Shown here piece by piece: positions 1,654 to 49,881 of a DNA stretch of 64,000 nucleotides. The DNA is from an uncultured Thiotrichales bacterium (lineage in GTDB: Bacteria > Pseudomonadota > Gammaproteobacteria > Francisellales > CACEW01): positions 3,143 through 67,142 of the forward strand of contig CAIQBE010000020.1 of NCBI GenBank assembly GCA_903870015.1, in the 5' to 3' direction. The number at the start of each line of letters is the position of its first letter. Positions within the stretch are counted from its first letter, which is position 1. The translations under genes were made by a program, and so were the position numbers. A model generated the notes under the pieces. That model did no database searches and had not been told where the DNA came from. It worked only from the letters and a program-made list of their open reading frames with translations.

Positions 1654-4188
1654 ATGAGCCCATCTTATATCGTCACTAAATTCGGCGGCAAAAGCGTTTC
1701 GGAATTGCGTTGCTGGCAGACCATTAATGCCATCACTAAGGCACATCTACAACAAGGCCTACGCCCCGTCATTATTTGCTCTGCGGTTAGTGGCATTACG
1801 GATTTATTAGAACAACTTTTAGTGGTAGCGCTAAAGCATCAACACACCCCTATTTTAACAAAAATCAGCGAACGCCATCAAAAATTAGCAGCGGATCTTG
1901 ATGTCAGCATGAATGAGGTGAATACAGATCTTGCTGAATTAAGCCTGCTGGCTAATAAAATCAGTGCGGATGCTACAGCTAGCCCACAAACACGCGCTGA
2001 AGTCCTAGCCTTTGGCGAACGCTTATCCACACGCTTAGGCGCTGCTTTTCTCAAAAAACACGGCATGAATATTGCCTGGCATGACAGTCGCCAATTATTA
2101 ATCTCGTGCCAAGATCCGCATGCCAATGAATCCAGCAGCTACTTATCGGCACGTTGTGACTGTGAGAAAGATAACGAATTATTACAAAAGTTAAATGCAG
2201 AAAAAGCAGCCATCATCATCACCCAAGGCTTTGTTGCTGCCAATATCCAAGGGGAAACCGTGATTTTAGGCCGTGGTGGCTCGGATACTTCTGGTGCGTA
2301 TTTTGCGGCAAAATTAAATGCCGTCAAATGCGAAATCTGGACCGATGTTCCTGGCATCTATACCGCCAACCCCCATCAAGTGCCCGAAGCGCAATTACTG
2401 CATTCGCTCGATTATGATGAAGCCCAAGAAATCGCCGCCATGGGCGCAAAAGTATTGCACCCGCGCGCGATTCTCCCCGTCAAATATCATCGCATCCCAC
2501 TTTACATTGCCAATACCTTTGACCCAAATCATCCTGGCACTTTGATCTCAAGCAACGGCTCACAATCAAGCGGTGAAATCAAAGCGATTCTAACTCGCAC
2601 GAGCCTCACCTTGATTTCGATCGAAACCCTCGACATGTGGCAACAAGTCGGCTTCTTGGCGGATGTCTTTGCGGCGTTTAAACGCCACGGCTTATCCATC
2701 GACTTGATTTCAACATCCGAGGCCAACGTCACCGTATCGCTTGATCTCAAAGCCAGCGCACAAGAGATGCATGTTGTCGATGCGCTCTTAACCGACTTAA
2801 ACACTTTTTGCAAAGCCAAAGCCATCGGCCCTTGTGCTTCAATTAGCTTAGTCGGACGCAATATTCGCGGTATTTTTCATAAATTAGGCGAAGCCTTTAC
2901 TGTCTTTGAAAAACACAATATCCATTTAATCTCACAAGCCGCAAATGACCTAAACCTCACTTTTGTTGTTGATGAAGATGAAGTCGAAAGCTTAGTCACA
3001 GAGCTACATCAATTATTATTCGCCGATATCAATCTCAAAAAACCCGTCAACATCAAAGAGCGCTGGTGGCATCCAAAGCAACAGGCATTGCTGAGTCTTG
3101 CCCAAAGCAAAACCCCGCTCTATGTCTATGATGCAGCGACTTTAGGCAACAACGTCAATAAATTAAAAAATCTAAAAGCGATTGATCAAGTATTTTTTGC
3201 CATGAAGGCCAATAATAACCAGGATATTTTGAAGCAATTTTATGCCGCAGGATTAGGCTTTGAATGCGTATCAATCCAAGAACTCGAGTTTATTTTTACG
3301 CTCTTTCCTGAGATTAGTCCACAAAAAATTATCTTCACGCCAAATTTTGCACCGCGCGCAGAATATAAGGCGGCGCTGAATTTTAACGTCAATGTCACGA
3401 TCGATAATCTCTACCCCATCGAACATTGGCCCGAATTATTTAAAGATAAAAAAATCATTGCCCGCATCGACCCAGGCCAAGGCTATGGCCATCATAAGCA
3501 TGTCTGCACGGCTGGCAGTATTTCTAAATTCGGCATCCCCATGAGCCAATTTGAACAACTGCTCACACTCACAAAGCAACATCATATCGAAGTCGTAGGG
3601 CTACATGCTCATACCGGCAGCGGGATTTTGACACCACAGATTTGGCAACAGACGGCACAATTTTTAATTGGGTTAAGCACTCACTTCCCAAAACTACGCC
3701 AAATCAATATCGGTGGCGGATTAGGTATTCCAGAAAAACCACATCAGCATGACTTAGATTTGGCAACGCTCGATGAACTGCTCTTAGAAGTCAAAACCCA
3801 AGCGCCACAACTCGAGTTCTGGCTTGAGCCCGGGCGCTTTTTAGTGGCACAAGCTGGCGTGCTTTTAAGCCGCGTTACCCAAATCAAAACCAAAGACGAT
3901 GTGCATTTTATTGGCGTCGACACTGGCATGAATTCACTCATTCGCCCTGCGCTATATGGCTCCTATCATTTTGTTGCCAACCTAAGCCATATTGATGCCC
4001 CCGGCACACAAACCGCCAATATCGTTGGCCCTATTTGCGAAAGTGGCGATACGCTTGCCTTCTCACGCCTGCTGCCAGAGACACAAGAAAATGATATCAT
4101 TCTGATTGATAATGCTGGCGCCTATGGACATGTGATGGGATCAGATTACAATATGCGCGCACCGGCAGAAGAAATTTATTTACATTAA
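1654..4188 (+). CDS. lysA: Bifunctional aspartokinase / diaminopimelate decarboxylase fusion
   Basis: 844 aa. N-terminal half has the aspartokinase motif (KFGGKS) and an ACT-like region. C-terminal half has LysA motifs (FFAMKANN PLP lysine, GGGLGIP, EPGRFLVA, CESGD). Confidence 0.88.
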   Translation: MSPSYIVTKFGGKSVSELRCWQTINAITKAHLQQGLRPVIICSAVSGITDLLEQLLVVALKHQHTPILTKISERHQKLAADLDVSMNEVNTDLAELSLLANKISADATASPQTRAEVLAFGERLSTRLGAAFLKKHGMNIAWHDSRQLLISCQDPHANESSSYLSARCDCEKDNELLQKLNAEKAAIIITQGFVAANIQGETVILGRGGSDTSGAYFAAKLNAVKCEIWTDVPGIYTANPHQVPEAQLLHSLDYDEAQEIAAMGAKVLHPRAILPVKYHRIPLYIANTFDPNHPGTLISSNGSQSSGEIKAILTRTSLTLISIETLDMWQQVGFLADVFAAFKRHGLSIDLISTSEANVTVSLDLKASAQEMHVVDALLTDLNTFCKAKAIGPCASISLVGRNIRGIFHKLGEAFTVFEKHNIHLISQAANDLNLTFVVDEDEVESLVTELHQLLFADINLKKPVNIKERWWHPKQQALLSLAQSKTPLYVYDAATLGNNVNKLKNLKAIDQVFFAMKANNNQDILKQFYAAGLGFECVSIQELEFIFTLFPEISPQKIIFTPNFAPRAEYKAALNFNVNVTIDNLYPIEHWPELFKDKKIIARIDPGQGYGHHKHVCTAGSISKFGIPMSQFEQLLTLTKQHHIEVVGLHAHTGSGILTPQIWQQTAQFLIGLSTHFPKLRQINIGGGLGIPEKPHQHDLDLATLDELLLEVKTQAPQLEFWLEPGRFLVAQAGVLLSRVTQIKTKDDVHFIGVDTGMNSLIRPALYGSYHFVANLSHIDAPGTQTANIVGPICESGDTLAFSRLLPETQENDIILIDNAGAYGHVMGSDYNMRAPAEEIYLH

Positions 4189-5954: not shown

Positions 5955-7883
5955 ATGAAAAACGATACGTTACGAACGATAGTGCTTTGGACTGCGGTGA
6001 TTACCGTGTTATTTTTTCTGTTTAACAATTTAAACGGCGATAAAACGCAAGACGCGCAAAAAATGGATTACTCCACTTTTGTCCAAGGAATTAATGGCGG
6101 CCAAATCAAAGATGTCACTATCAATGGCTTAACCTTGACGGGTGATACGGTCGATAACAATCATTTTGTCACCTACATGCCCTGGGTAGACCCCTTCTTG
6201 ACCGATCGGATGATTGATCATAATGTGGATGTCAAAGTCACCCCGATCGAAGAGCCTAATTTCTTAGTTAAATTCTTTCTTAGCTATATTTTACCAGTAC
6301 TGATCTTTGTGGGCATCTGGTATATCTTTATGCGGCAAATGAGCGGCGGCAAAGGCGGTGCCTTTTCTTTCGGTAAAAGCCGCGCCAAGCTTTTGGGTGA
6401 AGATCAAGTCAAAGTCACCCTCGCTGATGTGGCAGGAATTGATGAAGCCAAAGAAGAAGTCGGCGAGATCGTAGACTTCTTAAAAGATCCAAAGCGCTAT
6501 CAAGAAATCGGCGGCAAAATCCCTCATGGCGTACTGATGATTGGCCCACCAGGGACGGGTAAAACCTTACTTGCACGGGCGATTGCTGGCGAAGCCAAAG
6601 TACCTTATTTTTCTATTTCTGGCTCTGACTTCGTCGAAATGTTTGTCGGGGTTGGCGCCTCACGTGTCCGCGACATGTTTGAACAAGCCAAAAAGCGCGC
6701 GCCCTGCATTATCTTTATCGATGAAATCGATGCCGTTGGCCGCCATCGCGGCACTGGCATGGGCGGTGGTCATGATGAACGCGAACAAACCCTAAACCAA
6801 TTATTGGTGGAAATGGACGGCTTTGCTGAAAACCAAGGCGTGATCGTCATCGCCGCCACCAACCGCCCTGACGTGCTTGACCCCGCATTATTGCGCCCAG
6901 GTCGCTTTGACCGTCAGGTGACTGTCGGCTTGCCTGATCTTAAAGGTCGCGAACAAATCCTCAAGGTTCATATTCGCAAAATCACCACGAGCGATGATGT
7001 TAAAATCGAGTTCATCGCCCGCGGCACCCCAGGATTTTCAGGGGCTGATCTTGCTAACTTAATTAACGAAGCCGCACTCTTGGCTGCACGCCGTCGCAAG
7101 AAAAAAGTCGATATGTCTGATTTTGAAGAAGCCAAAGATAAGATCCTCATGGGCACCGAACGCCGGTCATTGGCCATGACCGTTGAAGAGAAAAAACTCA
7201 CGGCTTATCATGAATCCGGCCACGCCATTATCGGCCGCTTGGTGCCTGATCATGACCCCGTCTACAAAGTAACGATTATCCCCCGTGGCCGCGCTTTGGG
7301 CGTTACCATGTACTTACCTGAGCAAGATCGCGTGAGCTATAGCAAACAACGCTTAGAGAGCCAACTCTCCAGCCTTTACGGCGGTCGCTTGGCAGAAGAG
7401 CTGATCTTTGGCAAACATAAAGTCACAACGGGGGCCTCTAACGACATCCAAAGAGCCACCGAAATCGCGCGCAGCATGGTCACCAAATGGGGATTATCAG
7501 AGCGCCTAGGCCCACTCAAATACGGCGAAGATCACGACCAACCCTTCCTCGGCCAATCCATGGGCATGGGCGGCGGCCAAAGAGAATTCTCAGACTCAAC
7601 CGCAAAAATCATCGACGAAGAAGTGCGTAAAGTTATCGAAGACAATTACAATCGCGCCAAACAATTATTGGCCGACAATGTTGATATTTTACACTCGATG
7701 GCTGAAGCCCTAATGAAATACGAAACCCTAGACGCCAGCCAGGTCGACGCCCTAATGGCCCGTCAACCGGTATCAGACCCTCCAGGCTGGAACAGCGACG
7801 AAACCCCAAAAACGCCAACAGCAACTGAGACAGATAAAGACAAAGCCGCAAGCACAACAAAACTGCAACAGTCGTCGACCTGA
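5955..7883 (+). CDS. ftsH: ATP-dependent zinc metalloprotease FtsH
   Basis: 642 aa. Two N-terminal TM segments, Walker [17 protein letters not shown], zinc motif HESGH. Confidence 0.96.
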
Positions 7884-21944: not shown

Positions 21945-22553
21945 CTAATTTTGACTCTGCACCCAAGCCTGAAAACGCGCTGGCGTACTCGGCAGGTTTT
22001 GCTTTAAGAGATTAGCAAAATAAGCACCCATCACAGTTTTGCCGATGGAATGCGGACTCAACGCAAAATAAAACAACGAATACTGTAACTTGATTTTCCA
22101 ATCTGGATAGTTAGGCGTCAGCGCTAAAGCCATGGCAGAAGCAAGACCAGTCCGATCAACACCATAACCGCAATGAATCAAGAGCGGCCTTGGCGCAACT
22201 CGGATTAAGTTATCGAGTTGTTTTAACTGCGAAGGCGTTGGATCCGTATAGGCACTTAAACCCAAATCAAAGTGAGCCACATGGTTTTGAGCCGCAACAG
22301 TAAGCTCCTCTGAATGCCCGCCAAAATTAGGTGCTAGATCAATAATAGCTTTAATATGATGCTCATCAATAACCGCTTGCAACTGCGAAGGCGACAGCTG
22401 GGCCGAGCGATACACCTGACCAGGAATAACGGTATGAATATTCCCCGATAGCCGCAAGTAACCATAATAAGCGCCACAGCTAAGCGCCATGATCAAGAGG
22501 ACAGCAAGAAGAATACCAATATTTTTTTTTAAGTTTTTCATAGGATCAAACAC
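21945..22553 (-). CDS. Membrane-anchored or secreted Cys-based protein phosphatase (tyrosine/dual-specificity-like)
   Basis: N-terminal hydrophobic segment and C-x5-R P-loop HCGYGVDRTG. A poly-A9 tract sits in codons 8-11 (plus-strand T9 at 22522-22530). Confidence 0.7.
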   Translation of the reverse strand: MFDPMKNLKKNIGILLAVLLIMALSCGAYYGYLRLSGNIHTVIPGQVYRSAQLSPSQLQAVIDEHHIKAIIDLAPNFGGHSEELTVAAQNHVAHFDLGLSAYTDPTPSQLKQLDNLIRVAPRPLLIHCGYGVDRTGLASAMALALTPNYPDWKIKLQYSLFYFALSPHSIGKTVMGAYFANLLKQNLPSTPARFQAWVQSQN

Positions 22554-22639: not shown

Positions 22640-22732
22640 TGGCGGAGAAGGAGGGATTCGAACCCTCGATACAGCTTTTGACCGTATACTCCCTTAGCAG
22701 GGGAGCGCCTTCGACCACTCGGCCACCTCTCC
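22640..22732 (-). tRNA. tRNA-Ser (anticodon GCU), type II with long variable arm, CCA encoded
   Basis: Folded by hand. 7-bp acceptor stem GGAGAGG/CTTCTCC, anticodon loop CU-GCU-AA, 6-bp variable arm, T-arm GAGGG-TTCGAAT-CCCTC, 3' GCCA. Confidence 0.95.
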
Positions 22733-27131: not shown

Positions 27132-28970
27132 CTACTTCCCCTGATACTCCGGAACAATCTCAACAAGCAAAGCAAGCATTTGGGCTTGAGATAAACTGTA
27201 AAATTCTGAAGCAACTACGTCTATTTTCCCTCTACAACTCATAATATCGGCATCCGCGCTAGAACGCATAATTTTTTCATGCATGGTCGGCGCCAAAGCT
27301 TCATGGGCATAAAACAGCTCTTCAAATAACTTTTCACCAGGACGTAATCCAGTATAAACAATCTGAACATCAACGCCCACTTCTTTACCCGCAAATTGAA
27401 TCAATCTTTCAGCAATATATTGAATTTTAATGGGCTCCCCCATATCCAAAACAAAAATTTCACCGCCCTCACCAAAACTACCTGCTTGCAAAATCAAGCG
27501 ACAGGCCTCAGGAATGGTCATAAAATATCGGGTAATATCCGGATGAGTCACGGTAACAGGCCCACCCATTTCAATCTGTTTACGAAATAACGGCACCACG
27601 CTACCTGCAGAATTAATCACATTACCAAAGCGCACCACCATAAACCGGGTTTTGCCATGTTCTTGGTTCAGGGCATTGCAATAAAACTCAGCAGCGCGTT
27701 TGGTTGAACCCATAATATTGGTAGGGTTAACGGCCTTATCGGTAGAAATCAAAATAAAACGCTCAACACCATACTGAACGGCTAAATCAGCCACAATTTT
27801 AGTACCCAAGATATTATTCTTAATTGCGACATCAATCTGATCCTCGAGCAAAGGCACATGCTTATAGGCTGCTGCATGGAAAACCACTTTAGGTTGATAA
27901 CGCTGAAAAATCTGCTCCATAAAAGCAACATCAACTACAGAACCCAAGCAAACACTATACTGAACCCGATTACTTAAACTCGCTAACTCCTGATCAATTA
28001 GATATAAATTAAACTCTGAGTGATCAACCACAATCAGTTTTTTAGGCGCAAAACGAGCAATTTGCCGACACAGCTCACTACCAATCGAACCACCGCCACC
28101 CGTAACCAAAACCACCTCTCCATTTAAAAAATCTGTAATTTTAGTAGTATCAATATGCACTTCTTCACGACCGATTAAATCCTCAACGGACACCTTGCGA
28201 ATATTACCCAAATGCACTTGTGAAGAGGTCAATTCTTGCAAACTGGGCAAGGTCGAATAGGGTAGCCCCGCTTTTTCACACAAATCAACAATAGAGCGCA
28301 TGGATTTGGAAGACAAGGAAGGAATGGCAATAAAAATATGCTCGATCCTTTCACGCTCGGCAATCGCCGGAAGATCAGCAATTTTACCCAAAACCCTAAT
28401 GCCATGAAGCTCTCGCCCTTTTTTGGTCGCATGATCATCCAAAAATCCAATAGGCTGATACTTTTGGGTCGCATGACGCAAAAGATCCCGCACCAAGCCC
28501 TCACCCGCATCTCCAGCACCGATAATTAAAACACGCTTAGCATCATCACTCATCCCTTTACGCATCTTTAAAATTCGGTAGCTTAAACGCGTAGTGCCCA
28601 TAAAAATGGTTAGGAAAATAAAATAGAGAATGGGCACGGATCGTGGCAATACTTCACGATCTTTAAACAAAAACCACAAAAACACCAAAAACACTGTGCC
28701 GGCTGCAACTGTTTTGATGATGCGCAATAAATCGGCTAAAGAAGCAAACCGCCAAACGCCCCGATATAAGCCAAATAAAATGCAAAACAGAAATTGGATG
28801 GGGAGTAAGATCCACAGGAAATGATAAAATGAGGCAAAGCCTGAAGGAGGACTGGACTCAAAACTGAAGCGGAAGGCGTAGGAGGCCAGAAAGGCGAGGA
28901 CAATTGCCATGATATCGGCGATCATAGCGATGAGGCGGTTGCGATAGACAAAAATAATGTTGCTAAACAT
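27132..28970 (-). CDS. Membrane-bound nucleotide-sugar 4,6-dehydratase (WbpM/PglF/CapD family)
   Basis: 612 aa. Four N-terminal TM segments and two Rossmann regions (IIGAGDAG, VTGGGGSIGSEL). Confidence 0.88.
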   Translation of the reverse strand: MFSNIIFVYRNRLIAMIADIMAIVLAFLASYAFRFSFESSPPSGFASFYHFLWILLPIQFLFCILFGLYRGVWRFASLADLLRIIKTVAAGTVFLVFLWFLFKDREVLPRSVPILYFIFLTIFMGTTRLSYRILKMRKGMSDDAKRVLIIGAGDAGEGLVRDLLRHATQKYQPIGFLDDHATKKGRELHGIRVLGKIADLPAIAERERIEHIFIAIPSLSSKSMRSIVDLCEKAGLPYSTLPSLQELTSSQVHLGNIRKVSVEDLIGREEVHIDTTKITDFLNGEVVLVTGGGGSIGSELCRQIARFAPKKLIVVDHSEFNLYLIDQELASLSNRVQYSVCLGSVVDVAFMEQIFQRYQPKVVFHAAAYKHVPLLEDQIDVAIKNNILGTKIVADLAVQYGVERFILISTDKAVNPTNIMGSTKRAAEFYCNALNQEHGKTRFMVVRFGNVINSAGSVVPLFRKQIEMGGPVTVTHPDITRYFMTIPEACRLILQAGSFGEGGEIFVLDMGEPIKIQYIAERLIQFAGKEVGVDVQIVYTGLRPGEKLFEELFYAHEALAPTMHEKIMRSSADADIMSCRGKIDVVASEFYSLSQAQMLALLVEIVPEYQGK

Positions 28971-28991: not shown

Positions 28992-29028
28992 CCCTGAAAT
29001 TTGAAAGTCACGCGTTCAATTTTCAGGG
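28992..29028 (-). promoter_or_regulatory. Intercistronic hairpin overlapping the aminotransferase stop codon
   Basis: CCCTGAAA-t-TTGAA-9 nt-TTCAA-t-TTTCAGGG (8+5 bp). The SD AAGAGGGA of the next gene lies just downstream on the minus strand. Confidence 0.4.
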
Positions 29029-30312
29029 ATATTTTTTTAAAATATCCCGAATAATCTGCGCAGCTTGTCGCATTTCAGCTTCATCATAGATATGATCAAT
29101 CAGTAAAGCAACAGAAGTCTCACCCAAAGCTTTAGCATTGCTATACCGCTCTTTCGGCACTAAACCTGCTTTAACAAAAGCCTCTTCCAAATAAATCTCG
29201 GAACAACTCCCGACTTGAGACCAAAGCCCCTGCTGATTAATTCCAGTAATGACAGAATCTCGATGAGCCTTATCAACAAAGATATAAAACCGGTAATAAG
29301 CATGAGTGATGTGCGCAGGCGGGACAACCAAACGAACCCCGTCTATCCCGGTGAACGCTTCATTGAGAATATTGGCATTCCGCTCACGCAACTTCTGCCA
29401 CTCTGGCAGTTTTCTTAATTGAATCCGCCCAATTGCCGCCTGGGCTTCGGTCATGCGATAATTACTGCCAAAAGCGTCATGGAGCCAACGAAATCCTGGA
29501 GCATGTTGCTTTTTATAAACCGTATCATAGCCTTTGCCATGGTCTTTATAGGCCCAGGCTTTTTTAAACCATTCTTCATTATCAGTGGCCACTAAGCCAC
29601 CCTCGCCCATCGTAGAGATAATTTTATCCTGGCAAAAAGAAAACGCAGCCATATGGCCAAAGCTGCCGACAGGTGCTCCCGCTGAAGATGCTCCAGAAGC
29701 AGCCAGGGATGCAGAAGGCCCAGAAACAGTTCGCGCTGCCACCCCAGAATTCCCTGCGTCAACCCCATCAGAACCGTCAACCGATTTTTCAGCGGGAGCT
29801 CCTGAGCTGCCGATAGGCTTACCATTGATTTTCGCACCATGGGCTTGGGCACAGTCTTCGATCACATAAAGATTATGTTCTTCCGCAAAGGCCATAATAG
29901 CAGGCATATCACAGGGCCAACCGCCTAAATGCACACAGATAATCGCTTTGGTTTTCGCAGTCACATGGGGGGTAATCGTTGCAACCGTCAAATTCTGGGA
30001 TACAGGATCAATATCACACACCACGGGCTTTGCGCCCACTTCAACCACACAACTTGCTGAGGCCATAAAAGTCCGACACGGAACAATCACTTCATCTCCA
30101 GGGCCAATGCCTAATGCGTGCAAGCAAAGCTCTAAGGCACTGGTGCCATTGGCAACCGCGATGGTGTGGCTGACGCCGAGATATTCGGCATACTCTTTTT
30201 CAAAAAGCTTGCCTTGCTCGCCAGTCCAATAGTTTACTTTATTGGATTTTAAGACATTTGTTACTGCGTCGATTTCGTCTTGTTCGTAGATGGGCCATTT
30301 TTTTCCAAACAT
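29023..30312 (-). CDS. DegT/PglE/WbpE-family PLP sugar aminotransferase carrying a 48-aa in-frame insertion
   Basis: 429 aa. Canonical N- and C-terminal halves with the PLP lysine in FSFCQDKIIS. A Gly/Ser/Ala-rich insert lies between ..NGKPIGS and FGHMAAFSF. Confidence 0.85.
   Translation of the reverse strand: MFGKKWPIYEQDEIDAVTNVLKSNKVNYWTGEQGKLFEKEYAEYLGVSHTIAVANGTSALELCLHALGIGPGDEVIVPCRTFMASASCVVEVGAKPVVCDIDPVSQNLTVATITPHVTAKTKAIICVHLGGWPCDMPAIMAFAEEHNLYVIEDCAQAHGAKINGKPIGSSGAPAEKSVDGSDGVDAGNSGVAARTVSGPSASLAASGASSAGAPVGSFGHMAAFSFCQDKIISTMGEGGLVATDNEEWFKKAWAYKDHGKGYDTVYKKQHAPGFRWLHDAFGSNYRMTEAQAAIGRIQLRKLPEWQKLRERNANILNEAFTGIDGVRLVVPPAHITHAYYRFYIFVDKAHRDSVITGINQQGLWSQVGSCSEIYLEEAFVKAGLVPKERYSNAKALGETSVALLIDHIYDEAEMRQAAQIIRDILKKYP
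29661..29813. mobile_element. MITE-like 135-bp insertion (29670-29804) flanked by the 9-bp direct repeat AGCTGCCGA
   Basis: Direct repeats at 29661-29669 and 29805-29813. Terminal inverted repeats CAGGTGCTCCCGCTGA (29670-29685) and TCAGCGGGAGCTCCTG (29789-29804) match at 15/16. Total added length is 144 nt, or 48 codons. Confidence 0.6.
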
Positions 30313-30950
30313 TATCCTATCCTTTTAGCAGGAGCGCCAATAACCGTTGCTCCATCTGCAACATCCTCAATAACAACAGCTCCTGCACCAATAATACAGT
30401 GCTTACCAATTTTAACTCCGGGCAACACGATAGCGCCAGCGCCAATCAAAGTCAATTCGCCTACATTTACACCACCACATAATGTTGCATTTGGTGCAAT
30501 ATGAACATGATCTTCGATGATAATATCATGCTCAATAATGGCGCCCGTATTGATAATTACATTATTGCCAATATGAGTGTCCGGGTTAATCACAACACCC
30601 GCCATAATCATTAACCCATCACCTAATTTTACTGAATCCGCAATCACAGCATTAGCATGAATTTCCGAAGCAAAAGATAAATCGGTCTGTGCAAACTCAT
30701 TATAAATTTTTTGACGAATGTGGTTGTCGCCAATCGTCACAATAACGCCTTGGCATTGTTCTGCATGCTTTTTCCAAAAGGAAATAAGCTCAGAGCGCCC
30801 ACCCTCAATACGATAACCCAACCAAGACAATGCAAATTTGGCAGAATCATCATCAAAAAGCTTAATACTCTTAGAGCCATTGCTAAATAGAGATTCCATC
30901 ACCACTTTAGCATGACCTCCAGCGCCAAATAGCAGGGTTTCTTTTATCAT
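30312..30950 (-). CDS. NeuD/PglD-family sugar N-acetyltransferase (left-handed beta-helix)
   Basis: 212 aa. N-terminal LFGAGGHAKVV Rossmann-like part and C-terminal hexapeptide repeats. Confidence 0.85.
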   Translation of the reverse strand: MIKETLLFGAGGHAKVVMESLFSNGSKSIKLFDDDSAKFALSWLGYRIEGGRSELISFWKKHAEQCQGVIVTIGDNHIRQKIYNEFAQTDLSFASEIHANAVIADSVKLGDGLMIMAGVVINPDTHIGNNVIINTGAIIEHDIIIEDHVHIAPNATLCGGVNVGELTLIGAGAIVLPGVKIGKHCIIGAGAVVIEDVADGATVIGAPAKRIG

Positions 30951-31556
30951 TTAATTTTTTCCAGTAAATTTTTCCATAGTCGCCTGATTTTGTTGGCTAA
31001 CCCCTTCACGTTTAAAAACTTTTTTGAGGGTCAGTAACATAATCTGCATATCCAAGAAAAAGGATAAATGATCGACATACCAGCAATCAAGCTTAAACTT
31101 TTCCTGCCAGGAAATCGCATTGCGGCCATTGACCTGAGCCCAGCCAGTAATACCGGGCATCACCCAATGCCTACGCTTCTGCTCAACATTATACAATGGT
31201 AAATACTCTAACAAAAGCGGGCGAGGCCCTACAAAACTCATATCACCTTTTAAAATATTAAACAACTGAGGCAGCTCATCAAGACTCGAAGCCCTTAAAA
31301 ACTTGCCAAAACGGGTTAAGCGTAAAGCATCAGAAAGCAAATTGCCTGCATCATCTTTTTTATTTGTCATCGTGCGAAACTTGTAAACAGTAAAGATGTG
31401 CTCTTGATAACCAACACGGGGCTGTTTAAAAATAGCGGGAGATCCTAAAAAGATTCGCACCAACAACCAAATGATTAAAATTAGCCAGGAAAACAAAACG
31501 CACAACAAGAACGCTAAACTAACATCAAAGCCCTTTTTAAAAAATTTAGACCACAT
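30951..31556 (-). CDS. Small (PglC-type) undecaprenyl-phosphate sugar-phosphate transferase
   Basis: 201 aa. Single N-terminal TM helix and [21 protein letters not shown] motif. Confidence 0.88.
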
Positions 31557-44212: not shown

Positions 44213-45291
44213 AACCCCAAACCTCGACGAATGGTACCAGATATTTTTTCTAAATCCAGTTCTGTTAACCCTGGATAAATTGGCAAACACAAAACTCTTT
44301 TTGAAAGATCTTCACTCACTGGCATTTTCACATAATCCACATAGGATAATGTATTGAGCGATGGATAAAAATAGCGCCGAGGAATGATACCTTGTACTTT
44401 TAAATCGGCAACAGCCTGTAGAAGTTGCATCTCAGTTTCAAAAATAACTGGAAAATATGCGTAATTGGCTATGGCATTCTTATGAATTGAGAGCTGAACC
44501 AAAAATGACGGTAAATGCTCCCGATAATATCGATCTATTTTTTGACGCTCGGCTAAAATACAACCCATATCTTCCAAAACACACAAACCCATCGCCGCAT
44601 GGAATTCGCTCATTTTAGCATTAATTCCAAGCCCCTCAATCTTCCCACTCCCCAGCCGATCAAAACCAAAATTTATCATGTCACTGGCTCGTTTAAAAAC
44701 AGCATCATCTTTAATAATTAATGCACCACCCTCAACCGTATGAAAGAGCTTAGTAGCGTGAAAGCTAAGTACGGAAATATCACCATAATTTAATACACTT
44801 TGCCCACAATATTTCACGCCGAAAGCATGAGCAGCATCGTAAATTATTTTTAATTTATATTGTTGTGCAATATTGGCAATTTTTTCAACCCCACAAACAT
44901 TCCCATAAACATGTACAGGCAAAATAGCAGAGGTTTTTGAGGTAATTGCTGATTCTATTTGGTTTTCATCAATACAGAATGTGCATGGCTGAATGTCTGT
45001 AAATTTAGGAGTTAAGCCTTCCCAGACTAAAGAGCTTGTGGTCGCAACGAAGCTAAAGGGACTGGTTATAACCTCATTCTGTAATCCTAAAGCCTTATAT
45101 GCTATTTGCAAGCCAATCGTGGCATTGGCAACTAAAAGCAGATTCTTTACTCCTAAATAAGCCTCCAATTTTTGGGTAAGCAATTGGACGCATTGACCAT
45201 TATTAGTCAACCAAGCAGAACTATAGATCTTTTCCAAATATTCGCAATATTTTTCTTTTGAAGGAAGATAACTTTTAACAACATTAATCAT
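44209..45291 (-). CDS. DegT/DnrJ/EryC1-family sugar aminotransferase
   Basis: 360 aa. PLP lysine in LSFHATKLF and DAAHAFG motif. Confidence 0.88.
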   Translation of the reverse strand: MINVVKSYLPSKEKYCEYLEKIYSSAWLTNNGQCVQLLTQKLEAYLGVKNLLLVANATIGLQIAYKALGLQNEVITSPFSFVATTSSLVWEGLTPKFTDIQPCTFCIDENQIESAITSKTSAILPVHVYGNVCGVEKIANIAQQYKLKIIYDAAHAFGVKYCGQSVLNYGDISVLSFHATKLFHTVEGGALIIKDDAVFKRASDMINFGFDRLGSGKIEGLGINAKMSEFHAAMGLCVLEDMGCILAERQKIDRYYREHLPSFLVQLSIHKNAIANYAYFPVIFETEMQLLQAVADLKVQGIIPRRYFYPSLNTLSYVDYVKMPVSEDLSKRVLCLPIYPGLTELDLEKISGTIRRGLGL

Positions 45292-48771: not shown

Positions 48772-49881
48772 TCAAAAAACGGGCTTTAGAACCCCCACCA
48801 CCAACTCCTGATCCCCAAGCGTCAAAAACCCACTCATAGGCAAACTAAGAATCTCCTTGGAAACCAGCGCCGAAACCGGAAAATCAGCATCCACATACCC
48901 AAGCCCTTTAAAACAAGGCTGCCCATGAATAGGCATCGGATAATGTACCGCCGTCGGAATCCCTGCAGCAGCCAATTTCTTCACCACAGCATCACGATCT
49001 TTAACCCGAATAGAATACTGCGCATAAACATGACTATGCCCGGGCAAAGTCACTGGCGTCACCACATCAAGATTTTTCAATAACTCACCATAACGCGCAC
49101 CCAATTCATCTCGACGTTTCAATTCATCATCAAAATACTTCAACTTCACATTCAATACCGCCGCCTGAATGGTATCAAGCCGGCTATTTAAACCCACATA
49201 ACTATGCTGATACCTCGCCGTTTGCCCATGCACACGCAAAGCTTTGATCTTTGCTGCCAATTCATCATCATTGGTAAACAGCGCCCCGCCATCACCATAA
49301 CAGCCCAAAGGCTTTGAGGGAAAAAAACTAGTGCACGCCATATCCGATAAATTACAGGATTTTTTGCCTTTATACACCGCGCCAAAACTCTGGGCAGCAT
49401 CCTCGATCACATAAATTTTATGGCCGAATTTTTGTGAATACTCCAAAGCAATCGCGTTAATGGCATCCATATCGGCAACCTGGCCATACAACGATACTGG
49501 CATAATCGCACGGGTTTTTGGAGTAATGGCTGCCGCAATTAACGCTGGATTGATGTTATAACTTTGCTCATCAATGTCTACTAAAACGGGCTTCGCACCA
49601 AAAATAGCTGAGGCCTCTGCCGTAGCAATAAAAGTGAATGAGGGCGTAATCACCTCATCCCCAGGCTTAATATCAATCGCCATCAACGCCAGCATTAAGG
49701 CATCAGTACCATTGGCACAACTAATTGCATGCTTAGCGCCTGTATATTCAGCCAAAGAAGCCTCAAGCACATCAACATCTTTGCCCAAGATAAAGGCGGT
49801 GCTGGCAAGTACTTTGCTGATGGCCGCATCGATTTCGCCTTGATAGGCCCGATATTGGGCCTCTAAATTTATAAAGTGCAT
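48772..49881 (-). CDS. DegT/WbpE/ArnB-family sugar aminotransferase
   Basis: 369 aa. DAAQSFGA motif and PLP lysine in TSFFPSKPLG. Confidence 0.88.
   Translation of the reverse strand: MHFINLEAQYRAYQGEIDAAISKVLASTAFILGKDVDVLEASLAEYTGAKHAISCANGTDALMLALMAIDIKPGDEVITPSFTFIATAEASAIFGAKPVLVDIDEQSYNINPALIAAAITPKTRAIMPVSLYGQVADMDAINAIALEYSQKFGHKIYVIEDAAQSFGAVYKGKKSCNLSDMACTSFFPSKPLGCYGDGGALFTNDDELAAKIKALRVHGQTARYQHSYVGLNSRLDTIQAAVLNVKLKYFDDELKRRDELGARYGELLKNLDVVTPVTLPGHSHVYAQYSIRVKDRDAVVKKLAAAGIPTAVHYPMPIHGQPCFKGLGYVDADFPVSALVSKEILSLPMSGFLTLGDQELVVGVLKPVF

Follow-up and report, generated by a model that had tools for sequence, protein, structure and literature searches.

Can a mobile element enter a gene for surface-sugar synthesis and leave behind a longer but working enzyme? 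This question is raised by a 64,000-nucleotide stretch of DNA from an uncultured Thiotrichales bacterium (the window; positions 3,143 to 67,142 of contig CAIQBE010000020.1), in which a gene for a sugar aminotransferase of the DegT/DnrJ/EryC1/StrS family contains a 135-bp segment with inverted-repeat ends, flanked by an exact direct repeat. We find that the segment is very probably a non-autonomous DNA transposon, i.e., a MITE (a miniature transposable element with inverted repeats), inserted in frame in the aminotransferase gene. The core of this claim was made in a first-pass annotation of the window, and it is sustained by terminal inverted repeats (TIRs) and a 9-bp target-site duplication, by orthologues that are free of the added loop, and by a terminus that recurs in other elements.

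Anatomy and reading frame of the 135-bp segment

The host gene lies on the minus strand (29023..30312) and encodes a protein of 429 residues, or 381 without the insert (PF01041, 322.7 bits). Within it, the 135-bp element runs from a left TIR arm at 29670..29686 (CAGGTGCTCCCGCTGAA), through a 101-nt interior at 29687..29787 without homologue in the searched data, to a right arm at 29788..29804 (TTCAGCGGGAGCTCCTG; reverse complement CAGGAGCTCCCGCTGAA). The arms are 17 nt long, one base more than first annotated, and complementary at 16 of 17 positions (94%; inverted-repeat pair I4). Directly outside them stand the two copies of the target-site duplication, AGCTGCCGA on the plus strand, the left at 29661..29669 and its exact repeat at 29805..29813, with coordinates and sequence just as the first-pass annotation gave them; on the coding strand the repeat reads TCGGCAGCT and supplies codons for (I)GS. 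Of the 19 inverted-repeat pairs reported within 400 nt in the window, I4 is the one whose flanks were checked, and the chance of an abutting exact 9-bp repeat is about 4^-9 per pair. The terminus of the element has 2 matches in the 64-kb window at ≤3 mismatches (0.23 expected), with none elsewhere in it.

The element has no transposase gene, and its open frames are read-through frames only; four of the six are open across it, where at least three stop-free frames had been noted before. Elements of the MITE type span about 50-600 bp and have no transposase gene, a range that includes the present 135 bp, and both TIRs and a target-site duplication with an empty site in relatives are found here. 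No extended hairpin is formed beyond the 17-nt terminal stem (DNA z -1.66, RNA z -0.91 versus shuffles), and an RNA or Rfam explanation of the element was rejected, as its fold z-scores are unremarkable and the Rfam match in the window is tRNA only. Likewise, no promoter- or terminator-like site was found inside the element, and as the element has neither such sites nor folding beyond its terminal stem, it should exert no strong polar effect on the dehydratase gene downstream.

Together with one copy of the duplication, the element adds 144 nt, a multiple of three that corresponds to 48 codons and encodes SGAPAEKSVDGSDGVDAGNSGVAARTVSGPSASLAASGASSAGAPVGS, of which 31 of the 48 residues are Ser, Ala or Gly. 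The insert ends 13 residues before the lysine of the host enzyme that binds pyridoxal 5'-phosphate (PLP), K230, so that both the in-frame addition and its position upstream of this lysine are as originally described. Removal of the 144 nt restores ...AKINGKPIGSFGHMAAFSFCQDK, and an allele with an empty site would read ...ATCGGCAGC up to the junction and TTTGGC... after it. Between the DxAQ aspartate and the (F/T/L)SF strand, the spacing is 71 residues in the host protein and 23 after excision; the latter value is also that of both DegT paralogues of the window and agrees with the match that had been noticed at the outset. In addition, the insertion leaves the local host motif in place twice. 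The upstream half of the protein still ends ...GKPIGS at the insert, and on the other side the last base of the element and the duplicated TC GGC AGC generate CCT GTC GGC AGC TTT, i.e., PVGSF, the orthologue consensus; the C-terminal half thus begins PVGSFGH..., and the conserved P-(I/V)-G-S motif is present on both sides of the loop (29661-29672 and 29802-29816).

Orthologues argue that the loop is an addition to this gene. In a search of 5.8 billion proteins, full-length matches are typically 381-391 residues long, and the 48-residue segment is absent from 16 of 16 aligned full-length orthologues (57-81% identity), in line with the loop-free relatives that the first-pass annotation had led us to look for; the sole aligned sequence with the segment, P0009, is itself a fragment from this locus, with 99% identity. 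The terminus sequence is likewise absent from the orthologous genes. The best orthologue comes from L052, a locus in synteny with that of the window, whose genes run Ugd, epimerase, Bac_transf, PglD-like, DegT and PglF-like, and its site reads CCT GTA GGT AGT TTT, with one copy of the target. The empty site envisaged by that annotation therefore exists in orthologues, but the species itself yielded no empty-site allele, and a second copy of the element did not turn up.

The insert is not an assembly artefact, because it is identical in five independently assembled contigs of several samples. The exact 429-residue protein is recorded on at least 12 contigs, the six listed places of which come from at least five samples and different assembly pipelines, and four of the contigs, as well as one contig of a metagenome-assembled genome (MAG), show 100% identity with the window along stretches of up to 12.5 kb. 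The insert is present in every sampled copy; the lake population is clonal, however, and the invariance of the insert therefore says nothing about selection. The insertion is presumably recent, because the termini and the duplication are near-perfect.

A terminus family and the search for a parent transposase

A metagenome scan with one terminus as query (CAGGWGCTCCCGCTGAARA) returned 25 loci, about the number expected by chance according to our estimate, and most matches lie inside long open reading frames (ORFs). The exceptions are L016 and L029, in which the terminus CAGGWGCTCCCGCTGAA bounds small elements with perfect 9-bp duplications and with interiors unrelated to that of the window element. 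The L016 element, 155 bp in length, has one end identical for 20 nt to the reverse complement of the right arm in the window, a degenerate partner end, CAGCGGCTCCCGCTAAC, and flanks AGTAAATTT on both sides. The L029 element, 126 bp in length, has the partner end CAGTAATTCCCGCTGTA and flanks ATAGAGTGA on both sides, and its terminus, as in the related elements of L015 and L033, matches the left arm in the window over 17-20 nt. By our estimate, a partner terminus (≤5 mismatches) with a perfect 9-mer repeat directly beside it is expected about 1e-6 times per locus. Moreover, the L029-type element occupies at least three distinct sites with different flanks (L029/L035, L015 and L033), the L015 and L033 copies being 97% and 96% identical to it over 101 bp, while the window element is single-copy in all searched data. 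The ends of the family can be written CAGG(T/A)GCTCCCGCTGAA. A terminus that recurs with 9-bp duplications, and in one other element at three or more sites, marks a genuine family of transposon ends, present in at least three unrelated organisms (G+C of the contigs 0.37, 0.44 and 0.42).

Other searches returned the window locus or chance matches. The reference-genome scan, in which both inner TIR cores were joined by a flexible spacer and run against ~185,000 species representatives including the MAG of this species, yielded 8 loci; one (L012) is this very locus on a 1.8-kb MAG contig, and the other seven were rejected as unrelated palindromes or chance pairs with only the searched 11-mers in common. 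All 14 matches of a viral-contig scan lie inside long ORFs with neither partner terminus nor duplication and were rejected, and a BLAST of plasmids with both 30-nt termini gave only chance matches in ordinary genes (E ≥ 0.4). In the ~8 kb beyond the left edge of the window, there is no transposase and no terminus, and the protein at the right edge has no entry in the records. A literature search for the terminus string retrieved unrelated reporter, primer and vector papers, with none on a transposon, and the family is apparently undescribed in the literature searched. Those matches may be due to the firefly luciferase gene, in which GCTCCCGCTGAA occurs.

Two further groups of terminus matches were observed. 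Four contigs with G+C of 0.30-0.34 (L023, L028, L034 and L037) share the same site, with flank CTGTCCTAG, and contain the 20-nt terminus CAGGAGCTCCCGCTGAAAAT in very AT-rich, ORF-poor sequence with (AT)n microsatellites, which may be of eukaryotic or organellar origin; neither a partner end nor a duplication was found within 4 kb. The matches at L017 141-161, less than 160 bp from the contig end, and at L019 1731-1749 lie outside long ORFs and could be the ends of longer family members, with no transposase or partner terminus seen.

One locus seemed to offer a parent. In L015, the terminus lies 166 bp before the gene of a 404-residue transposase of the IS256 family (NF033543, 425.9 bits; PF00872, 412.5 bits), and IS256-family elements make 8-9-bp duplications, so that the window element might have been a deletion derivative of such an insertion sequence (IS). 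As stated, this proposal is refuted by the boundaries of the IS. Homology among IS256 copies (L053-L058; transposases 82-86% identical), for three of which contigs were compared, spans L015 200-1994; the L015 IS256 bears inverted repeats of its own, GGGACTGTAAAT...TGTGTAAATGC; and the relatives have no CAGG terminus, with best matches of 7-10 mismatches in 17. The terminus of L015 belongs instead to an L029-type small element copy at 102-202 (97% identity), which is abutted or interrupted by the IS256. Once these boundaries were mapped with the help of five related copies, IS256 was rejected as the parent, L015 being a case of a nested or adjacent unrelated IS. In the L015 IS256 itself, the transposase stop is separated from the right inverted repeat by ~500 bp of additional sequence, including a 22-bp perfect hairpin at ~1560-1645, and to the right of the IS there is neither a duplication nor a small-element remainder, indicating a rearranged junction. 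The window contains no relative of the L015 IS256 transposase, and this search covered that family, other transposase families not having been screened for.

Elements of the ISAs1 family end in CAGGG and make 8-10-bp duplications. We therefore compared the termini with those of the E. coli yhhI element (H-repeat, ISAs1 family; NF033564, 412 bits), which are CAGGGAAAGA and CAGGGCAAGA. The first four bases, CAGG, are alike and there is no similarity beyond them, and an ISAs1 transposase was found beside none of the CAGGWGCTCCCGCTGAA termini; ISAs1 as the parent is no more than a lead.

The host enzyme and the consequences of the insertion

The host gene is embedded in a set of genes on the minus strand that points to a bacillosamine-like pathway. 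Upstream, a PglD-like hexapeptide N-acetyltransferase gene (30312..30950, 212 residues; PF17836 PglD_N, PF00132) overlaps the start of the host gene with its stop and is itself preceded by a PglC-like phosphoglycosyl transferase gene of the Bac_transf type (30951..31556, 201 residues; PF02397), and downstream lies the gene of a PglF-like membrane-associated 4,6-dehydratase (Polysacc_synt_2; 27132..28970, 612 residues). Two DegT paralogues in the same glycan cluster (44536-45198 and 48844-49842, also on the minus strand) are 30% and 35% identical to the host protein.

The closest solved structure to the host protein is 7L7X, that of Pcryo_0638 from Psychrobacter cryohalolentis (E 9.3e-118), and the alignment breaks exactly at the insert. 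Pcryo_0638 aminates UDP-4-keto-6-deoxy-GlcNAc at C4, toward 2,4-diacetamido-2,4,6-trideoxy-D-glucose, and this substrate is also that of PglE (PMC8040287). Host residues D153, Q156, Q228 and K230 align with Asp156, Gln159, Gln183 and Lys185 of 7L7X, all in invariant columns, and K230 (codon 29623..29625, minus strand) thus corresponds to the Schiff-base lysine, and D153 to the aspartate that binds the pyridine N. NCBIfam equivalog models place the host protein below every cut-off. From the similarity to 7L7X and the gene context, the protein is fairly described as a Pcryo_0638/PglE-type C4 aminotransferase of a bacillosamine-like pathway, and the earlier label of a PglE-like enzyme of a priming-sugar pathway is a fair one in view of its PglF-, PglD- and PglC-like neighbours. 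Without its loop, the host enzyme would be the same kind of PLP-dependent C4 aminotransferase as Pcryo_0638 and Campylobacter jejuni PglE. Relative to Pcryo_0638, the insert falls between the residues that correspond to Ser172 and Ile173, a position at which both solved enzymes and all 16 orthologues have no insertion, and this stretch is not listed among the ligand contacts of Pcryo_0638 (PMC8040287). Independent of the MITE, the host protein is also without 6-7 residues of most orthologues at ~345-350 (…VDKA------HRD…), as is, similarly, P0008 (381 residues).

An AlphaFold2 model computed with the orthologue alignment (predicted template modelling score, pTM, 0.80) matches the fold of 7L7X (Foldseek E 5.5e-41; TM 0.85 normalised by target) and of about 50 other sugar aminotransferases. 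Values below 50 in the predicted local distance difference test (pLDDT) are confined to residues 168-216, which have no secondary structure in the model and sit between a short hairpin (161-166) and the strand (221-225) that leads to the PLP lysine. The loop is thus predicted to be disordered and the core fold to be kept.

On these grounds we propose the following course of events. A DDE-type transposase acting in trans would have cut the aminotransferase gene with a stagger of 9 bp, and repair of this cut would have duplicated TCGGCAGCT. With a length divisible by three and a stop-free read frame, the insertion would have left the gene open, and the protein would have gained a 48-residue Ser/Ala/Gly-rich loop between the surface hairpin and the β-strand before the PLP lysine, the P-(I/V)-G-S motif being rebuilt on both sides by the duplication and the last bases of the element. 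The enzyme would still work, and we consider this the most likely outcome of this MITE insertion, because the loop is predicted to be disordered and the core fold and the catalytic residues are intact.

Several observations weigh against a MITE that is tolerated by its host gene. No second intact copy was found in the ~185,000 species-representative genomes, no other copy of the interior exists in the window by word-7 blastn of the whole element, a four-frame peptide query against the 5.8 billion proteins matched only the same locus, and no other terminus occurs in ~72 kb of this genome at ≤4 mismatches. The window, L016 and L029 elements have only their termini in common, and no autonomous IS with these termini was found among the 39 terminus-bearing loci or in plasmids. 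As for the enzyme, the insert splits a family-invariant segment (G216, S217) only 13 residues from the catalytic lysine; since the population is clonal, signs of purifying selection on the allele with the insert are wanting, and the gene may represent a null allele of very recent origin. The single known copy, together with a low-complexity interior of coding-like periodicity, would also suit an origin other than transposition, by local slippage, duplication, template switching or a lineage-specific expansion of low-complexity sequence. Such an origin is strongly disfavoured. The interior has no local source, the terminus is absent from orthologous genes, and the same 17-20-nt terminus with perfect 9-bp duplications surrounds small elements in unrelated organisms, which therefore excludes local slippage or duplication.

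The more serious alternative accepts the transposon and disputes the enzyme: a true MITE insertion may have inactivated the protein, leaving a null allele so recent that no stops have accumulated. We regard this as a substantial possibility, though one that falls short of even. It would fit the proximity of the insert to K230 within an orthologue-invariant segment and the recent event marked by near-perfect TIRs and duplication, and in a clonal population the intact ORF is no evidence of selection. The loss might be compensated by a DegT paralogue, two of which lie in the window, or might mirror a surface glycan that has been lost or is variable; at only 30-35% identity, however, the paralogues are unlikely to be isofunctional. 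The null allele is further countered by the preserved frame, by a Ser/Ala/Gly-rich loop that is predicted to be disordered next to a confidently modelled core, by the P(I/V)GS motif rebuilt on both sides and by the presence of every catalytic residue. Within the MITE reading, a functional enzyme therefore keeps somewhat the better prospects.

An in-frame MITE insertion is one of the few single-step routes to a whole new surface loop, and whether a fold-type I PLP enzyme can accommodate 48 extra residues near its catalytic lysine is directly testable. Since the insertion lies in the priming-sugar pathway of a surface glycan, lost or modulated function would alter the cell surface. The case is also unusually clean: the duplication is perfect and the TIRs nearly so, the site is empty in a syntenic locus, and the closest relative of the host enzyme has a 1.3 Å structure and an established assay. 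To our knowledge, well-documented in-frame MITE cases outside Rickettsia are few.

Relation to known in-frame elements and further observations

Rickettsia palindromic elements (RPEs) are short selfish repeats that lie in frame in genes and add residues thought to be compatible with the fold (PMC10969869). The window element resembles them in size (~100-150 bp), in its in-frame position in a housekeeping or metabolic gene and in the number of residues added (roughly 35-50). It differs from them in its classical TIRs and 9-bp duplication, in a palindrome limited to the termini, in the want of a conserved family peptide among the 5.8 billion proteins searched in four frames, and in being a singleton in its genome as far as visible, in a free-living lake gammaproteobacterium. 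The parallel with RPEs drawn in the first-pass annotation thus holds for the in-frame outcome but not for the structure, since there is no extended palindrome, nor for the protein product, to which no related peptide was found.

A closer likeness is to bacterial MITEs inside ORFs. In-frame intragenic MITEs are established, the RPEs being the most extreme of them; ERIC, BOX, the Coxiella element QMITE1 and the Anabaena MITEs are further instances, Coxiella QMITE2 is likewise found inside ORFs, and translational fusions are possible (PMC10969869, PMC5896051). Like these, the window element is a small non-coding sequence with TIRs at its boundaries and a duplication on its flanks, and the direct repeats of QMITE2, 7-11 nt, are of a length similar to its 9 bp (PMC5896051). 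QMITE1 is 300-400 bp long with 2-4-bp direct repeats, and QMITE2 is 150-190 bp long, REP-related and mostly intergenic (PMC5896051); identity with either was rejected, as sizes and repeat lengths differ, there is no sequence relationship and the host is not Coxiella. The MITE families named above have no sequence relationship with the window element and are multi-copy in one genome, whereas here only the terminus recurs. The insertion is therefore a known kind of phenomenon that involves no new mechanism; what appears to be new is the terminus family, defined by CAGGWGCTCCCGCTGAA and the 9-bp duplication.

The base composition of the element calls for a different account from the one first given. 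With a G+C content of 0.59, the element stands above the window as a whole (0.42), and it had been called compositionally foreign. This is misleading. In the host frame, G+C at codon positions 1, 2 and 3 is 0.71/0.75/0.33 in the insert and 0.54/0.40/0.43 in the rest of the gene; the high G+C is not evidence of foreign base composition, because the excess lies in positions 1 and 2 of Ala, Gly and Ser codons and position 3 is AT-rich like the host. The 101-nt interior alone has G+C by phase of 0.68/0.71/0.33, a pattern reached in 111 of 20000 shuffles. This three-nucleotide S-S-W periodicity (S, G or C; W, A or T), which follows the host frame, is absent from the L016 and L029 interiors. It is present on both strands, and one frame per strand therefore gives an Ala/Gly/Ser/Pro-rich peptide; on either strand the interior resembles a coding sequence for a linker peptide. 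The periodicity belonged to the element before insertion, since the near-perfect termini and duplication mark the insertion as too recent for it to have evolved in place.

Its origin may lie in chance, in a captured coding fragment or in adaptation to residence in genes. The last would make the element a member of a "coding-compatible" class of MITEs, a free-living counterpart of the Rickettsia RPEs. This idea, prompted by the length of a multiple of three with the duplication, the four of six open frames, the S-S-W interior and the rebuilt host motif, is speculative and rather unlikely. The interior may instead derive from a linker-coding gene, a piece of which was captured between two transposon ends.

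Elsewhere in the window, two independent assemblies (L001 and L002) end at 22357, inside a phosphatase-like gene and 280 bp from tRNA-Ser(GCT) (22640-22732), where no repeat is visible; as the position is inside an ordinary gene, the idea that these contig breaks point to a repeat or IS was rejected. The FtsH gene (~5955-7883) encodes one 642-residue product or two, of 274 and 356 residues, in the assemblies of two samples (L061 9856-11784 and L060 14302-16230), a difference due either to a frameshift variant or to faulty assembly, the population being clonal in other respects. Just upstream of an aspartokinase/decarboxylase fusion gene (1654-4188), at ~899-1521 on the minus strand (L060 9246-9868), lies a HepT-like/MNT nucleotidyltransferase pair that resembles type VII toxin-antitoxin systems.

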